A DNA stretch of 28,588 bases from a bacterium (Candidatus Gribaldobacteria) CG07_land_8_20_14_0_80_33_18 (lineage in GTDB: Bacteria; Patescibacteriota; Minisyncoccia; Minisyncoccales; CG1-02-41-26): the NCBI GenBank assembly GCA_002779425.1, contig PEWP01000013.1, forward strand, positions 1 through 28,588, read 5' to 3'. Within the stretch, counting starts at the first letter, position 1. Each line of letters starts with the position of its first letter. The position numbers and the translations under genes are program-made. Under the pieces are notes generated by a model that saw only the letters and a list, made by a program, of their open reading frames with translations, did no database searches and was not told the DNA's origin. Of the stretch, positions 12,395 to 22,803 are shown one piece after another.

Positions 12395-13566
12395 TTATGT
12401 TAAAAACACTTAAAGATTTTAATTTTTTCGATAAAAAAGTTTTAGTTAGAACAGATTTTAATGTGCCAATTGAAAATGGGAGAATTATTGATAGTTTTCG
12501 AATTGAGAGAACTCTTCCCACAATAAATTACCTTAGAGAAAAAGGTGCAAAAGTAATATTATTGTCTCATCAAGGCGATGGACTTTCCTTTCAACCAGTA
12601 GCCCTAAAATTAGAAGAACTATTAAAAAAACCGATAAAATTTTTAAATGACTGTTGCGGCAAAAAAGTAGAAAAAGAAATAAATAAAATGAAAAGTGGTC
12701 AGATAATTCTTTTAGAGAATTTAAGATTTTATCCCCAAGAAAAAGAAAATAATTTAGAATTTGCCAAAAATCTCGCAAAATTAGGCGATATTTATGTTTC
12801 TGAAGCATTTTCTGTTTCTCATCGTTCTCATGCTTCAATAGTTTCTTTACCGTTTCTTTTACAGGCAAAAGCTATCGGTTTTTTATTTGAAAAAGAAATG
12901 GAAACTTTATCTAAGGTATTAGGGCGCGCAGCGGCCAGGCCCGCCTGCGCAGGCAGGCCATTGGTTATTATTATTGGCGGGAAAAAGATTTCTTCCAAAC
13001 TTAAGGTAATCTCCAGTTTTATTGAAAAAGCTGACCATCTTCTTTTTGGAGGCGAATTGGCAAATGTAATTTTGAGAGTAAAAGGAATATGTGTGGGCAA
13101 GCCTTGGCCAGAAAAAGAAATGATTGAAGAAATTGGAAAAATAAATTTAACTGATACAAAAATTCATTTGCCGATGGATGTAATTGTTTCACCTGACGAG
13201 ACAGGAGAAATATATATTAAGGAAACCGGTCCGGGAAAGGTAAGAAAGGAGGAGGAAATTTTTGATATTGGTCCGGAAACAATTCAAACTTTTTCTTCTA
13301 TAATTAAAGAAGCAAAAACAATTATTTGGTCGGGCCCTTTAGGTTTAATTGAGAATAAACTATTTAAAAAAGGAACAGAAACAATTGCTCAAAGGATAGT
13401 TGCCAATACTTCGGCTTTTTCTATTGCTGGCGGGGGAGACACAATAAAGATTCTTCGCGAGCTTAATTTTATTGACAAATTTTCTTTTATCTCAACCGGA
13501 GGAAGCGCTATGCTTTCTTTTTTAGCTGAAGAAAAACTACCAGGAATTGAGGCGCTAAAAGTTTAG
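12391..13566 (+). CDS. pgk: Phosphoglycerate kinase (divergent)
   Basis: VRTDFNVP, LENLRF, SHRSHAS, IFDIGP, GGGDT, ISTGG and KLPGIEAL. Confidence 0.92.
   Translation: MIMLKTLKDFNFFDKKVLVRTDFNVPIENGRIIDSFRIERTLPTINYLREKGAKVILLSHQGDGLSFQPVALKLEELLKKPIKFLNDCCGKKVEKEINKMKSGQIILLENLRFYPQEKENNLEFAKNLAKLGDIYVSEAFSVSHRSHASIVSLPFLLQAKAIGFLFEKEMETLSKVLGRAAARPACAGRPLVIIIGGKKISSKLKVISSFIEKADHLLFGGELANVILRVKGICVGKPWPEKEMIEEIGKINLTDTKIHLPMDVIVSPDETGEIYIKETGPGKVRKEEEIFDIGPETIQTFSSIIKEAKTIIWSGPLGLIENKLFKKGTETIAQRIVANTSAFSIAGGGDTIKILRELNFIDKFSFISTGGSAMLSFLAEEKLPGIEALKV
12940..12957. repeat. 18-nt in-frame palindromic insertion in pgk
   Basis: CCCGCCTGCGCAGGCAGG contains the perfect palindrome GCCTGCGCAGGC and encodes PACAGR. 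Confidence 0.85.
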
Positions 13567-15230: not shown

Positions 15231-15619
15231 GAGCTCAAGTAGACAAGGCAATCGCCCTGTTAGATAGAGCTTGTAAGCTCATCATTTAATGGGGAGGAAA
15301 GTCCGAACACCCTCCCGCATATATGCGGGATAAAAAAATAGCGGCTAACAGCCGTCCACCGTAAGGTGAGAGGTGCGAACAGAGACGCTCTAGAACCCGA
15401 AAGGGTTCGGGCCCCTATTCTGCCTTAGGGCAGACGGGTGATCTCCGAGTGAAAACTCGGAAGTGAAACGGCTAAATCCTTATTGGGTGCAAGAACAAAC
15501 TTTCGACAATCTCCGGATTTGTCGAAATGAAAAGTAGTTCGCTTGATCCCGTAAGTAATTATGGGACCAGATAAATGATTGTCTAAAACAGAATTCGGCT
15601 TATTGTCTGCTTGAGCTTT
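15231..15619 (+). ncRNA. rnpB: RNase P RNA
   Basis: P1 GAGCTCAAGTAGAC / GTCTGCTTGAGCTT; conserved GAGGAAAGTCC, AACAGAGAC, TGAAACGG, GGTGCAAG, AGATAAATGAT and AACAGAATTCGGCTTA. Confidence 0.95.
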
Positions 15620-15637: not shown

Positions 15638-17290
15638 ATGTTCAATCGCGTTTTAAATTCAAAAGCGAAAAATATTACTTTTGCTGCTCTAATTCTTGCT
15701 GTCTCCGCTTTAATTAGTCAGCTTTTAGGATTTCTTCGCGATAATCTTTTAGCTAATTTGGTCCCAAGAGTTCAAACTGATATTTATTTTGCTGCTTTTC
15801 GAATTCCTGATCTGGTTTATGGAATTCTTATTACCGGTGGCGTTGTCGCTGCTTTTTTACCAGTTTTTGCTCAATATTTTAAACAAGGCCAAAATGAAGC
15901 AAAGAATTTAACCAATAATGTTTTAACCTTTTTTTTAATTGCTTTAGTTGTTATTTGTTCTTTTTTAGCAATTTTTACTCCCTATCTTATTAAATTTATT
16001 GTTCCCGGATTTTCAGGAGAACAAAAAAATTTAACCATTGTTTTAACTCGGATAATGTTTTTAAGCCCAATTCTCTTAGGCCTTTCTTCAATTTTCTCTT
16101 CTATTTTGCATTATTTTAATTTATTTATTGCTTATTCTTTAGCCCCTCTTTTTTATAATTTAGGCATTATTTTTGGTATTTTATTTTTTTATCCCTATTT
16201 TGGACTTTCCGGTTTAGCTTATGGAATTATTCTCGGCGCCTTAGCTCATTTGTTGATTCAAATTCCTTTTGCAATAAAAATGGGGTTTAGACCAACTTTT
16301 TCTTTTAATTTCAAACATCCTGGACTAATAAAGATATTTAAACTAATGCTTCCCCGAACTGTTGGTTCTATTGCCACCCATTTGAATTTAATTGTTATTA
16401 CTGCCATTGCTTCCGGCTTATCACTTGGTTCTATTACTATTTTTAATTTTTCTAATAATTTAGCCAGTGTACCAATTAGTTTAATCGGTATTTCTTTTGC
16501 TACTGCTGCTTTTCCAGCTCTTTCTCGAGATTTTCTCGAAGAAAAAGAAAAATTTTTTAAAAAAATTTCATCGGTTTTTTCTCAACTTCTTTATTTAATT
16601 ATCCCTTTGAGTGTTTTAATCTATTTACTTCGGGCTCAGCTCGTCAGAATAATTTTAGGAACGGCAATTTTAAAAAACGGCGGTTTTGGCTGGCAGGAAA
16701 CGCGGTTAACTGCTGCTGCTATTGGAATTTTTTGTTTTTCTCTTTTTGCTTCAACCTTTATTCCCTATTTAGTTCGGGTCTTTTTTTCTTTTCAAAACAC
16801 CAAAACACCGGTTAAGATTGCTCTTCTTTCAATACTTTTAAATATAATTTTGTGCTATTTTTTTGTTTGGTCTTTGAGTTTTAATAATTTTTTTCAAAAG
16901 GGGCTCATAAATTTTTTAAAACTTAAAGGAATTTCCAATATCTCAGTGTTAGGTTTGCCGTTAGCTTTTTCTATTTCATCTATTTTTCAATTTTTTCTTT
17001 TATTTTTTTTCTTAAAAAGAAAAATCTCAGGTCTCAGTTATAAAGATATTCATCAAACTTTTCTGAAAATTTTAATTTCAACTTTTATAATGGCAGTTAT
17101 TGTTTTTCTTACTCTGCAAATTTATTCATTATTTGGCACTACGAGAACCGTTATTGGAATTTTCTTTCAAACAATTTTAGCGGGGCTGACTGGCATTTTC
17201 TTTTATCTTTTTCTCTCTTTTATCTTACAATGCCCTGAACCAAAAATTATTTGGTCGTCAATTTTATCGCAATTTAAAAAACCCCAGTAG
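15638..17290 (+). CDS. murJ: Lipid II flippase MurJ (MviN)
   Basis: LLGFLRDNLLA, YFAAFRIPDLVY, AFLPVF, APLFYNLGII and FATAAFPALS; multi-pass membrane protein. Confidence 0.93.
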   Translation: MFNRVLNSKAKNITFAALILAVSALISQLLGFLRDNLLANLVPRVQTDIYFAAFRIPDLVYGILITGGVVAAFLPVFAQYFKQGQNEAKNLTNNVLTFFLIALVVICSFLAIFTPYLIKFIVPGFSGEQKNLTIVLTRIMFLSPILLGLSSIFSSILHYFNLFIAYSLAPLFYNLGIIFGILFFYPYFGLSGLAYGIILGALAHLLIQIPFAIKMGFRPTFSFNFKHPGLIKIFKLMLPRTVGSIATHLNLIVITAIASGLSLGSITIFNFSNNLASVPISLIGISFATAAFPALSRDFLEEKEKFFKKISSVFSQLLYLIIPLSVLIYLLRAQLVRIILGTAILKNGGFGWQETRLTAAAIGIFCFSLFASTFIPYLVRVFFSFQNTKTPVKIALLSILLNIILCYFFVWSLSFNNFFQKGLINFLKLKGISNISVLGLPLAFSISSIFQFFLLFFFLKRKISGLSYKDIHQTFLKILISTFIMAVIVFLTLQIYSLFGTTRTVIGIFFQTILAGLTGIFFYLFLSFILQCPEPKIIWSSILSQFKKPQ

Positions 17291-17319
17291 TAGAACCTGC
17301 GGGTTCACTACGGGGCAGG
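17282..17319. repeat. Palindromic element overlapping the murJ stop codon
   Basis: CCCCAGTAGTAGAACCTGCGGGTTCACTACGGGG-CAGG; the 3' end CTACGGGGCAGGTAAA is identical to that of the prfB insertion. Confidence 0.85.
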
Positions 17320-17326
17320 TAAAATT

Positions 17327-19153
17327 ATGGAAACATCACAAGTTCGCAATTTTTGCATCATTAGCCATGTGGACCATGGGAAATCAACTTTGGCAGATAG
17401 ATTTTTAGAATTGACAAACACAATCCCCAAAGAAAAAATGAAACCCCAGTATCTTGATTCAATGGGTTTGGAGCGAGAAAAGGGGATTACGATAAAAATG
17501 CACCCCTGCCGGATGGACTACTCTTTACAAACTACTCACTACATACTGAACCTGATAGATACCCCGGGTCATATCGATTTTAGCTATGAAATATCAAGAG
17601 CTCTGGCAGCTGCTGAAGGGGCAATTTTACTTGTTGATGCAACTTCTGGCATTCAAGCTCAAACTCTTTTTAATTTAGAAATGGCTCAAAGACAAAATTT
17701 AAAAATTATTGGCGCGGTAAACAAAATTGATTCAAAAGAAGCAAAGATTGAAGAAACAAAAAAAGATTTGAGTTTTCTATTAAAAGTACCCCCGGAAGAA
17801 ATTTTTTTGATTTCTGCTAAAGAAGGAACAAACATTTTACAGTTATTAGAAGCAGTAATTGAAAAAATTCCGCCACCCAAGATTGAAACTCAAAGAGCTG
17901 ATAGGAGTGGTTCTTATTTTCGCGCTTTGATTTTTGATTCAAAATACGACCCCTTTTATGGGGTAATTGCTTATGTAAGAGTTTTTGACGGTGAGATTAA
18001 AAAAGGAGAGAAAATTTATTTAATGGCAACTGATATTTTTAGCGAAGCAAAAGAAGTTGGTTATTTTGTCCCAGAATTAAAAAACGCAGAAGTTCTAAAA
18101 ACAGGAGATATTGGTTATATAAAAACCGGAATTAAAAATCCCAATAAAGTTAAAGTAGGGGATACAATTTGCCAAATGCCAAATGCCAAATTCCAAATTC
18201 CAAAAATCGAAGCGTTACCGGGTTATAAAGAACCGCAGCCAGTTTTATTTTTAAGTTTATATCCGCAAAATCCTGAAAATTTTTTAAATTTGAAAGGTGG
18301 TTTAGAAAAATTAAAATTAAACGATCCGGCTCTTCATTTTGAACTAGAATCCAAAAAAATTTTAGGTCAGGGATTTCGTTGTGGATTTTTAGGCTCTCTT
18401 CATGCCGAAATTGTTCTCCGGCGCTTAAAAGAAGATTATGATTTAGATTTAATTACTACTTCACCGGCAGTAATTTTCAAGATTTTAACTGAAAAGGGGA
18501 AAGAAAATTTTATTTCTTCAGCTTCAGATTTTCCAAGAAGTTCGGAGATTAAAGAAATAAAAGAACCCTGGATAAAACTTAAAATTATCACTCCTCTTTC
18601 TTATTTTAATTCCATTTTTAAAATTTTAAAAAATTTTAAAGCAAAACTTACAGAAACTAACTCATTTAGTTTTAATAAACTTATTTTAATTGCTGAAGCG
18701 CCTTTAAAACAAATTGAAACTCATAATTTTTATGACAAACTTAAAAGCGCCACTTCCGGTTATGCCTCGTTTAGCTTTGAAAATATTGGTTTTAGACCAG
18801 CCGATGTGGTAAAACTCGATATTCTTATTGCTAAAGAAAAAGAAGAAGCCTTTTCCAGAATTGTTGACCGAGATGAAGCGTATAATGAAGGAAAAACAAT
18901 AGTTTCAAAGCTTAAGGAAGTTTTACCACCCGAACAATTTGAAGTTCCACTTCAGGCAGCAATAGAAGAAAAAGTGGTTGCCAGAGAAACAATTGAAGCA
19001 AAAAGAAAGGATGTAACCGCGCCTTTATATGGCGGCGATGTTACCAGAAAAAGAAAACTCTTAGAAATCCAAAAAAAAGGAAAGAGAGAGTTAAAAAAAA
19101 GAGGCAGGGTTAGAATTCCTTTTCAGACCTATTTAGAAATGCTTAAAAGCTAA
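17327..19153 (+). CDS. lepA: Elongation factor 4 (LepA)
   Basis: RNFCIISHVDHGKSTLADR, LEREKGITIK, LIDTPGHIDF, NKID, GFRCGFLG and RKDVTAPLYGGDVTRKRKLL. Confidence 0.97.
   Translation: METSQVRNFCIISHVDHGKSTLADRFLELTNTIPKEKMKPQYLDSMGLEREKGITIKMHPCRMDYSLQTTHYILNLIDTPGHIDFSYEISRALAAAEGAILLVDATSGIQAQTLFNLEMAQRQNLKIIGAVNKIDSKEAKIEETKKDLSFLLKVPPEEIFLISAKEGTNILQLLEAVIEKIPPPKIETQRADRSGSYFRALIFDSKYDPFYGVIAYVRVFDGEIKKGEKIYLMATDIFSEAKEVGYFVPELKNAEVLKTGDIGYIKTGIKNPNKVKVGDTICQMPNAKFQIPKIEALPGYKEPQPVLFLSLYPQNPENFLNLKGGLEKLKLNDPALHFELESKKILGQGFRCGFLGSLHAEIVLRRLKEDYDLDLITTSPAVIFKILTEKGKENFISSASDFPRSSEIKEIKEPWIKLKIITPLSYFNSIFKILKNFKAKLTETNSFSFNKLILIAEAPLKQIETHNFYDKLKSATSGYASFSFENIGFRPADVVKLDILIAKEKEEAFSRIVDRDEAYNEGKTIVSKLKEVLPPEQFEVPLQAAIEEKVVARETIEAKRKDVTAPLYGGDVTRKRKLLEIQKKGKRELKKRGRVRIPFQTYLEMLKS
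17518..17547 (+). repeat. Degenerate heptamer array in lepA
   Basis: CTACTCT TTACAAA CTACTCA CTACATA (encodes YSLQTTHYIL). Confidence 0.55.
18170..18204 (+). repeat. Heptamer array in lepA
   Basis: TGCCAAA x3 then TTCCAAA x2 (encodes CQMPNAKFQIPK). Confidence 0.9.
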
Positions 19154-19709: not shown

Positions 19710-19780
19710 GCGAGTGTAGTATAATGGTAGTACGTGACCTTCCCAAGGTTAAAGCGAGGGTTCGATCCCCTTCACTCGCT
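19710..19780 (+). tRNA. tRNA-Gly(CCC)
   Basis: Acceptor GCGAGTG/CACTCGC; anticodon arm TGACC-TTCCCAA-GGTTA; T-loop GTTCGAT; no encoded CCA. Confidence 0.93.
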
Positions 19781-19813: not shown

Positions 19814-19885
19814 GCCGGGGTAACTCAGTGGTAGAGTAGCTGTTTCGTAAACAGCAAGTCGCGAGTTCGAATCTCGCCTCCGGCT
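19814..19885 (+). tRNA. tRNA-Thr(CGT)
   Basis: Acceptor GCCGGGG/CTCCGGC; anticodon arm GCTGT-TTCGTAA-ACAGC; T-loop GTTCGAAT; no encoded CCA. Confidence 0.93.
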
Positions 19886-19892
19886 AAAAAAT

Positions 19893-21048
19893 ATGAGAGA
19901 AATTGAACAACAAATTAAAGATTTAGAAAGTAAACTCCATCATCTGATGGACTGTCTTTGACCTTGAAAAGAAAAAAGAGGAAATAAAAACTTTGGAAAA
20001 GGAAATTACAAAACCGGATTTTTGGCAACACCCCGAAGGACCCCGCCAAGGCGGGGCCTACGGGGCAGGTAAAGAAAAAGCCATAAAAATTAGTCAAAAA
20101 CTAAAGAATCTACAGGAAGAAATAGAAAAGTTCGATAAATTACAAAAAGAATTAAGCGATTTAAAAGAATTATTGTCTTTAATCAAAGAAGGTTCCGGCG
20201 AGGAGGAAGAAATTAAAGAAAAAATAAAAGAAGTTAGTTTAAAAATAAAGGAAAAAGAACAGGAAGCTTTTCTTTCAGGGAAATATGATAAAGAAGGAAC
20301 AATTTTAACTATTCAAGCTGGCGCTGGCGGAAGAGAAGCAGAGGATTGGGTGGCAATGCTTTTGCGAATGTATCAAAAATATTGTCAAAGGCAACGATTT
20401 AAAACTAGAATTATAGACCAGAGTTTTGGTGAAGCGGGCGGTCCGGAAGGAAGAATTGGTATCAAAGAAATAACAATGGAAATTAAAGGAAATTTTGCTT
20501 TTGGATTTTTAAAAAAAGAGGGAGGAATTCACCGGTTGGTTAGAATTTCACCTTTTTCCAGCCAAGACCTTCGTCATACCTCATTTGCCAAGGTTGAAGT
20601 TATTCCGTTCATCCCGGCTGCTGATACGTCGGAAATAAAAATAAAACCAGAGGAATTAAAAATTGAAACATTTTGCGCTTCGGGTCCGGGGGGGCAGTAT
20701 GTGAATCGAAGAGAGACAGCAGTGCGAATTGTTCATTTACCAACCGGAATTGTCGCTAAGTCTCAAGCAGAAAGATTACAGGGAACAAATCGCGAGCGAG
20801 CAATGGAAATTTTAATGGCAAAACTTTATCAATTTTATCAAGAGCAAAAAGAGAAGGAGCTTCAAAAAATTAAAGGTAAAAAAATTTCTCCTTCTTGGGG
20901 AAACCAACGCCGCTCTTATGTGCTTTATCCTTATAAATTAGTTAAAGATTATCAAACAAAAGTTGAAACTTCTAATATAGAAGGAGTGTTAGACGGCGAT
21001 ATTAATCAATTTATTGAAGCAGAAATAATAAAAACAAAAAATGATTAA
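19893..21048 (+). CDS. prfB: Peptide chain release factor 2 with programmed +1 frameshift
   Basis: ATG 19893 reads MREIEQQIKDLESKLHHLMDCL to CTT TGA C at 19956-19962; the +1 frame continues DLEKKKEE. SPF motif (RISPFS) and GPGGQ are present. Confidence 0.96.
20031..20069. repeat. 39-nt in-frame palindromic insertion in prfB
   Basis: CCCCGAAGGACCCCGCCAAGGCGGGGCCTACGGGGCAGG with stems CCCCG/CGGGG and CCCCGCC/GGCGGGG. Confidence 0.9.
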
Positions 21049-22729: not shown

Positions 22730-22803
22730 TGCGGGGTGATGTAACGGTAGCATGCGAACCTCTGGAGTTCGTCATCTTGGTTCGAATCCAAGCCCCGCAG
22801 CCA
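22730..22803 (+). tRNA. tRNA-Gln(CTG)
   Basis: Acceptor TGCGGGG/CCCCGCA; anticodon arm CGAAC-CTCTGGA-GTTCG; T-loop GTTCGAAT; CCA encoded at 22801-22803. Confidence 0.93.

Follow-up and report, generated by a model that had tools for sequence, protein, structure and literature searches.

The Rickettsia palindromic elements (RPEs) are the classic in-frame palindromic elements: non-autonomous palindromes of a small AT-rich genome, located between genes or in frame within conserved genes, where they are read through as an extra surface peptide, and for which no transposase is known. The 28,588-nt stretch of DNA analyzed here (the window), contig PEWP01000013.1 of Candidatus Gribaldobacteria CG07_land_8_20_14_0_80_33_18, includes two copies of a short hairpin-forming element that would share all of these traits, read-through of the coding copies included. 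One copy lies between murJ and lepA and provides the murJ stop codon; the other is found within prfB, the gene for release factor 2 (RF2). The host belongs to the Patescibacteria, ultra-small groundwater bacteria, and its genome (G000) consists of 502 kb in 57 contigs, with a G+C content of 32.8% and an estimated completeness of 99.7%. While RPEs are about 100-150 nt in length and are restricted to Rickettsia (PMC3733652), the element has a core of 33-45 nt and occurs in Patescibacteria, and it differs, as far as descriptions set the two apart, by having other sequences, lengths quantised in threes, and a nearly invariable sense orientation within open reading frames (ORFs).

The element is also similar in its general organization to the GTAG-tagged repetitive extragenic palindromes (REPs), whose ends often give a TAG stop codon to the flanking ORFs and some of which are intragenic (Di Nocera et al. 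2013, PMC3733652). Both have a palindrome of 20-40 nt with a bottom-strand GTAG directly 5' of a variable hairpin, and many copies of both are located just after the upstream gene. However, the GTAG of the element is base-paired in the outer stem with the arm facing it (CTAC or GAAG), whereas the REP tag is unpaired. Moreover, there are 1-9 copies per genome instead of hundreds, over half of them are intragenic while REPs are mainly extragenic, and we found no REP-associated tyrosine transposase (RAYT) in the host genome, no association with Y1 transposase genes, and no Y1 gene beside the copies.

Other systems show more limited likeness. The palindrome-associated transposable elements (PATEs), which are hairpin MITEs (miniature transposable elements with inverted repeats) derived from IS200/IS605, resemble it in the lack of target duplication, the fixed short flank, and a conserved hairpin in place of classical terminal inverted repeats, but they have separate left-end and right-end hairpins and a cellular TnpA, whereas the element is a single hairpin and its host has no PF01797 gene. 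Unlike a classical MITE, it shows no target-site duplication at four inferred insertion sites. The GC clusters or bypass elements of yeast mitochondria are likewise GC-rich mobile palindromes of an AT-rich genome, where they spread into coding regions; they need not keep the reading frame, whereas the element keeps it in 44 of 45 ORF copies. The family thus behaves like RPEs and GTAG REPs, and differs from them in host phylum, size, copy number, intragenic fraction, quantised length, and the lack of an associated transposase. The donation of a stop codon by a repeat is, taken alone, an ordinary finding. Of moderate interest is the family-level pattern of 33-39-nt hairpins that follow a rule of three, are sense-only in essential genes, have an A^YAAR target (^ marks the insertion point), and can be nested. 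No description of this element in Patescibacteria was found in the open-access literature searched.

The murJ-lepA and prfB copies

The features of the two loci are as follows.

15638-17290, plus strand: murJ, lipid II flippase (Pfam PF03023, MurJ, E 2.3e-77), two codons longer and re-terminated by the element
17282-17319, plus strand: murJ-lepA element, 38 nt, identified by sequence, fold and covariance-model score (53 bits, E 8e-14)
17288-17293, plus strand: left-arm TAG TAG, of which the first (17288-17290) is the current murJ stop codon
17308-17319, plus strand: right arm CTACGGGGCAGG, which varies least of all parts of the family (invariant alignment columns)
17320-17323, plus strand: TAAA, the ancestral murJ TAA plus an A, now out of frame; host target, outside the element
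17327-19153, plus strand: lepA (EF4; Pfam GTP_EFTU and LepA_C), its ATG 7 nt past the unpaired CAGG of the element; synteny kept in relatives
19893-21048, plus strand: prfB (Pfam PCRF and RF-1), with a +1 frameshift site CTT TGA C at 19956-19962
20031-20069, plus strand: prfB coding copy, 39 nt (54.5 bits), read as PEGPRQGGAYGAG between FWQH and KEKA
20070-20073, plus strand: TAAA following the prfB copy, made up of the final His-codon base and the Lys codon and of host origin

The right arm CTACGGGGCAGG is found in both copies (17308-17319 and 20058-20069), each time with TAAA next to it. The 16-mer that they share exactly, GGGGCAGGTAAA, is confined to these two positions in the whole genome, and no other match to CTACGGGGCAGG with up to two mismatches is present in the window, where 0.34 would be expected from shuffled sequences. 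The murJ copy has the layout CCCC-A-GTAGT-A-GAACC-TGCG-GGTTC-ACTAC-GGGG-CAGG and the prfB copy the layout CCCCG-A-AGG-A-CCCCGC-CAAG-GCGGGG-CCT-A-CGGGG-CAGG. The inner stems are therefore GAACC/GGTTC (17293-17297 with 17302-17306) and CCCCGC/GCGGGG (20041-20046 with 20051-20056), respectively. Each copy is predicted to form a single irregular hairpin, of -21.7 kcal/mol (z -5.1) for murJ and -29.6 kcal/mol (z -4.7) for prfB, a stability that 0 of 200 shuffled sequences matched in either case. The murJ copy would fold as CCCC, a bulged A, GUAGU, a second bulged A and GAACC, a UGCG loop, and then GGUUC, ACUAC and GGGG, leaving CAGG unpaired. An earlier note, made from the letters of the window, had proposed a common 16-nt end joined to different inner hairpins, and lengths of 38 nt (not a multiple of three) for the intergenic copy and 39 nt for the coding copy; sequence, mismatch scan and folds agree with it on all these points. 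The two copies are not each other's closest relatives: that of murJ falls into a subfamily of the CCCCAGTAGTAG type, and that of prfB is of the CCCCGAAGG type.

The last murJ codons, CCC CAG TAG (17282-17290), are followed by a second TAG, and the Pro-Gln pair (17282-17287) is part of the element. Genes murJ and lepA are adjacent in most relatives compared, in which they abut or overlap, while the gap in the host is 36 nt; the site between them is empty in every relative compared. The MurJ protein of the closest relative, 66% identical, ends in ...QFKK (TTT AAA AAA TAA), with a TAA that overlaps the lepA ATG, and other relatives have QFKK(x)-stop. The order in the host is ...QFKK, 38 nt, and TAAAATT followed by the lepA ATG. 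This comparison shows, at the level of sequence, that the element entered exactly between the last Lys codon of murJ and the ancestral TAA, and murJ as a consequence ends two codons later, at the left-arm TAG. The C-termini of the orthologues thus bear out the earlier proposal that the left arm encodes the last murJ codons and the stop.

Most likely the effect of the intergenic copy is incidental, consisting of two extra MurJ residues, a new stop codon, and a junction spread apart by a stable hairpin. The unpaired CAGG could act as a weak ribosome-binding site for lepA. In another genus (G006:C15:10222-10270, L071) lepA itself has a canonical in-frame 39-nt copy, about 70 codons from its start and thus a short way downstream of the murJ-lepA junction, as an independent insertion in the same neighborhood.

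The 39-nt copy in prfB is located 70 nt downstream of the frameshift site. All 18 RF2 orthologues that have the motif show FW-x-x-x-(K/E)-A with no insert, while the prfB copy adds 13 amino acids. Excision of nucleotides 20031-20069 restores FWQ-H-K-EKA, to be compared with FWQ-[D/N/K]-[K/Q]-EKA in the orthologues. The ancestral xAT AAA codons were therefore divided as xA^T AAA, and the A^TAAA junction is thus shared with murJ. An AlphaFold2 model of the frameshift-mended protein, built with 15 orthologues (mean predicted local distance difference test score, pLDDT, of 80), places the insert at residues 48-60, where a coil (41-58) connects the domain 1 helices 25-40 and 59-97, with pLDDT below 50 at residues 51-57. 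The model fits an insert tolerated as a loop. The prfB gene of the closest relative (L002, G017) is a single frame without CTT TGA C, while the host and several others keep the programmed frameshift.

Distribution and structure of the family

A covariance model was built from an alignment of eleven copies and run on the host genome and 39 genomes of its taxonomic family. It identified eight copies in the host, where the exact 12-mer CTACGGGGCAGG occurs five times, and matches in 24 of the 39 relatives, with 1-9 per genome. Exact CTACGGGGCAGG is also present in seven genomes of other genera, in none of which, nor elsewhere, was the reversed control found. The consensus of the eleven copies is A-CCCCG-A-AGG-A-[variable stem-loop]-CCT-A-CGGGG-CAGG-YAAA, and the core of the family, 33-45 nt, can be described as two arms, CCCCGAAGG or CCCCAGTAG on the left and CTACGGGGCAGG on the right, with a variable stem-loop between them. 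Paired positions are filled by complementary bases in 96.5% of the alignment cells, versus 83.7% after shuffling, and four pairs have changed on both sides. The covariation score was reached by 0 of 500 shuffles, and sliding the partners abolished the pairing. The earlier view of conserved ends with a variable interior holds in 59 and 83 further copies.

A strict two-arm pattern search of species-representative public genomes (596 Gb) detected at least 119 stretches, mostly in Patescibacteria or lineages of the Parcubacteria group, including Nomura-, Kaiser-, Nealson-, Giovannoni-, Brenner- and Tagabacteria and Paceibacterota. Some matches outside Patescibacteria (Streptomyces, Pseudomonas) were judged to be at the chance level for a pattern of 20 GC-rich bases in a database of that size. 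Carriage by phages was rejected as well, since all six matches in viral contigs were in GC-rich contexts and looked like chance. Four metagenomes from aquifers or groundwater include the host. In these, the summed contig depth over 17251-17367 was 100-440, compared with 3-12 in the preceding bins; relative to its flanks, the hairpin was put at a depth 100-200 times as high, and many contigs matched just 17281-17317 and then continued into unrelated sequence; the murJ-type hairpin is therefore common across the whole community.

Several loci have unusual interiors. L087 and L093 (G016 and G054) have the family arms around an AT-rich interior of 70-76 nt with an extra small hairpin, the largest interiors seen. 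At L070:1460-1543 the left arm and part of the stem (CCCCGAAGCAGAA, 13 nt) are tandemly triplicated before a complete copy, all within a 380-codon ORF.

Insertion, reading frame and target site

Insertion events could be defined at other genes. MurC has 13 extra residues at one point that are missing from ten orthologues. In mnmA, four other genera share an old murJ-type copy at one site, with a palindrome that has decayed in one genus, and several genera have no copy. The host mnmA includes, nested at GAA^CAAG within the loop of the old copy, an extra canonical copy of 33 nt, which adds exactly 11 residues and is not found in the four genera. In G016 a 33-nt copy is located in an otherwise alignable gene, with nothing at that place in three genomes of the same genus. 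No target duplication was detected at the murJ, prfB, mnmA and G016 sites, where the additions are exact blocks of 33, 38 or 39 nt. On the basis of these alignments, the element is shown to be present or absent at orthologous sites and to enter as a precise block, leaving the target unduplicated. The comparison within a genus of a second intergenic copy, at L073, did not define an event, as the spacer is too variable.

Five of the host copies are in frame within genes (RF2, MurC, a second Mur ligase, MnmA and a histidine kinase); the remaining ones are located at the start of an hsdS gene (one) and in intergenic spacers (two). The copies occupy three different reading frames, and the added peptide is therefore not the conserved feature. 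Lengths were tabulated in an independent sample of 83 copies, taken from AT-rich loci with the two-arm pattern and an ORF cut-off of at least 150 codons: 37 copies have 33 nt, 21 have 36 nt, 7 have 39 nt, and a few have other lengths. Multiples of three make up 69 of the 83, that is 44 of 45 within ORFs and 25 of 38 outside. The earlier note had placed selection for frame only within genes. This stands as far as the genes are concerned, but copies outside genes are enriched in multiples of three too, and the whole family is therefore quantised at 33, 36 and 39 nt.

Orientation was counted in the same loci plus one more (86 copies, ORF cut-off of at least 120 codons). Within ORFs, 46 copies are in sense, none is exclusively antisense, and 2 are ambiguous, while intergenic copies are co-oriented with their neighbors in 19 cases and opposed in 10. 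In the model-based sample of close relatives the ORF copies include 17 in sense and 3-4 in antisense. The canonical core is free of stop codons in all sense frames, which encode hydrophilic peptides rich in Pro, Gly, Arg, Lys, Glu and Ser, while one of the antisense frames has a TAG, the remaining two being more hydrophobic. The pattern shows, to judge from the sequences available, that a copy in a gene persists only when its length is divisible by three and its orientation is sense. A strand bias of the target motif was rejected as the cause of the sense bias because the motif is equally frequent on both strands (ratio about 1), and an analysis of GC skew for replication- versus transcription-linked orientation was confounded with gene direction.

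Tabulation of the flanks of the 83 copies revealed an A at position -1 in 59, at +1 a C in 49 and a T in 18, and an A at each of +2 to +4 in 47-54. There is hence a target preference, as had been proposed, but it is not for TAAA alone and corresponds to a broader A^YAA(A/G). In the three events that allow this to be inferred, the YAA(A/G) is of host origin: the murJ stop, the xAT-AAA of prfB, and the CAAG in the mnmA loop.

The intergenic copies that were checked separate distinct genes (a histidine kinase and a response regulator, a ClpP neighbor, RuvB, GyrA) and not the halves of a broken gene. In other genera (L051, L052, L073, L074, L035, L048, L050) many of them are directly preceded, and sometimes followed, by tandem arrays of heptamers with units such as AAATCTC, AAAATCA, AACTACA and AAAATGC; according to an earlier reading, arrays of 7-nt units are also present in the window.

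Mechanism, alternative explanations and other repeats

Considering all these properties, the family is in all probability a non-autonomous, hairpin-forming insertion element of Patescibacteria, the intragenic copies of which would be translated as loops. Translation would add surface loops to RF2, MurC, another Mur ligase, MnmA and the histidine kinase. The hairpin, with its conserved A.A mismatch, its bulged A, and its asymmetric 3' tail CAGG, would be recognized by an enzyme supplied in trans. Mechanistically the element would come nearest to the IS200/IS605 and REP/RAYT systems, whose substrates are single-stranded hairpins and whose insertions produce no duplication. Transposition of this type would fit both the lack of duplication and the fixed flanking bases, but we consider a single-strand mechanism that depends on a Y1 enzyme rather doubtful. 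Tentatively, the element may have been shaped for genomes that are nearly free of spacers, by means of quanta of 33, 36 and 39 nt, stop-free sense frames, hydrophilic peptides, a strand-specific enzyme that would take the conserved asymmetric foot of the element (A.A mismatch, bulged A and CTACGGGGCAGG) as its handle and insert the element at A^YAAR without duplication, and variable interiors built by nesting, the loop of a resident copy being itself a target; the stop-free sense frames and the flexible hydrophilic peptides would then be what lets it settle in essential genes.

Several points weigh against an insertion element with translated copies. That the coding copies are translated is something we infer. 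No Y1/HUH gene (PF01797) was found in the nearly complete host genome. Element and Y1 genes are not associated among the 39 relatives (12 have both, 12 only the element, 9 only Y1, and 6 neither), and none of the Y1 genes of the relatives is flanked by copies of the element. Stop codons alone predict a ratio of sense to antisense of about 3:2 within ORFs, and the near-total sense bias is stronger; selection on the peptide may account for the near-absence of antisense copies. The element could also extend one base further than drawn, given the excess of C at +1. No empty murJ or prfB alleles were seen in the metagenome contigs, which break at the repeated element, and these contigs give no sign of recent movement in the host lineage. 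As a separate observation, ORFs with a Y1_Tnp domain (PF01797; about 245-275 codons, moderate match) are present in 21 of the 39 relatives, often several per genome (e.g. G054:C25:18468-18737).

A different explanation is that the hairpin is a selected RNA element of the murJ-lepA transcript, acting as a stabilizer, an RNase site, a translation decoupler or a donor of the lepA ribosome-binding site, and that its spread reflects this function rather than a selfish mode of insertion. The covarying stems would agree with such a role, and so would the position of the intergenic copies, which are often found 4-24 nt past the upstream stop codon in pairs of genes with the same direction, their mild co-orientation with the neighbors (19 to 10), and the unpaired CAGG 7 nt before the lepA ATG. 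On the other hand, 46-48 of the 86 copies are inside ORFs of unrelated genes, the murJ-lepA site is empty in all relatives compared, other sites vary within a genus, and old copies decay. An ATG at the distance suited to a ribosome-binding site follows just 5 of the 86 copies, and a general role as donor of such a site was rejected on this count. A scan of 17100-17500 detected no intrinsic terminator, since there is no T run and the hairpin is followed by CAGGTAAAATT; a promoter scan gave nothing at the hairpin; and Rfam searches, at gathering thresholds over the whole window and at permissive ones over 17200-17400, gave no match at the element, the only matches elsewhere in the window being RNase P RNA and tRNAs. 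We regard a selected RNA function as improbable.

Even less can be said for the coding copies being left untranslated, by removal as a miniature intron or by ribosome bypass, with the intergenic copy being the same element in a place where removal is not needed. It is true that prfB is essential, that the hairpin is strong and has conserved ends, and that in one case GC-rich palindromes are bypassed in AT-rich mitochondrial genomes. Removal would not require, however, that 44 of 45 ORF copies be multiples of three and free of stops in the host frame, with copies of other lengths almost confined to regions outside ORFs. All three frames are used, the old mnmA copy evolves like ordinary coding sequence, and the RF2 insert is modeled as a loop between helices. 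This explanation is thus very improbable. Finally, that the two window copies are unrelated GC-rich hairpins, alike by chance or through an assembly artifact, is refuted by the counts even though several kinds of GC-rich hairpin are frequent in the host genome, given that the copies are identical over 16 nt when the expectation for loose 12-mer matches is 0.34, that the same arms recur in dozens of genomes from independent studies, and that gap-free contigs from independent metagenome runs cross the prfB copy.

If the family is the insertion element that we favor, it persists in many lineages of Patescibacteria, whose genomes of about 0.5 Mb have very little spacer, by occupying genes of cell-wall synthesis, of translation termination and of tRNA modification. 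It would constitute a clean natural data set of protein loops able to accept about 11-13 additional residues, a marker of recent gene exchange between uncultivated bacteria of groundwater, and a defined substrate (a 33-nt hairpin with an A^YAAR target) for finding the enzyme that moves it. For annotation, it may account for odd C-terminal extensions, changed stop codons, and unexplained insertions in marker genes.

GC-rich hairpins of other kinds are common in the host genome. A second family consists of an 18-nt perfect palindrome, CCYGCCTGCGCRGGCRGG, with about 14 genomic sites, including 12940-12957 of the window (in pgk) and C43:2192 and C43:2886 (in mnmA). Its flanks are often TTTA...TAAA or repeats of the AAAATCA type, and it has in common with the element an end of GGCAGG directly before YAAA, which suggests that a common insertion machinery may serve both families. 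A third family, with 16 host sites (for example C19:15578, C23:1285 and C52:3040), has a GAATTTSCCGC lead followed by a hairpin whose stems vary but stay paired (GCGACC/GGTCGC, GCGCTC/GAGCGC, GCCGCC/GGCGGC). L089:1323-1361 (G016) corresponds to a dispersed repeat of about 35 nt, 87-97% identical, that is found in at least 12 near-identical places in G053, in a genus of the same family. As for the remaining RNA genes of the window, RNase P RNA (class A, 127 bits) is located at 15236-15617, directly upstream of murJ, two tRNA genes at 19710-19780 and 19814-19885 are directly upstream of prfB, and a third tRNA gene is found at 22730-22800.

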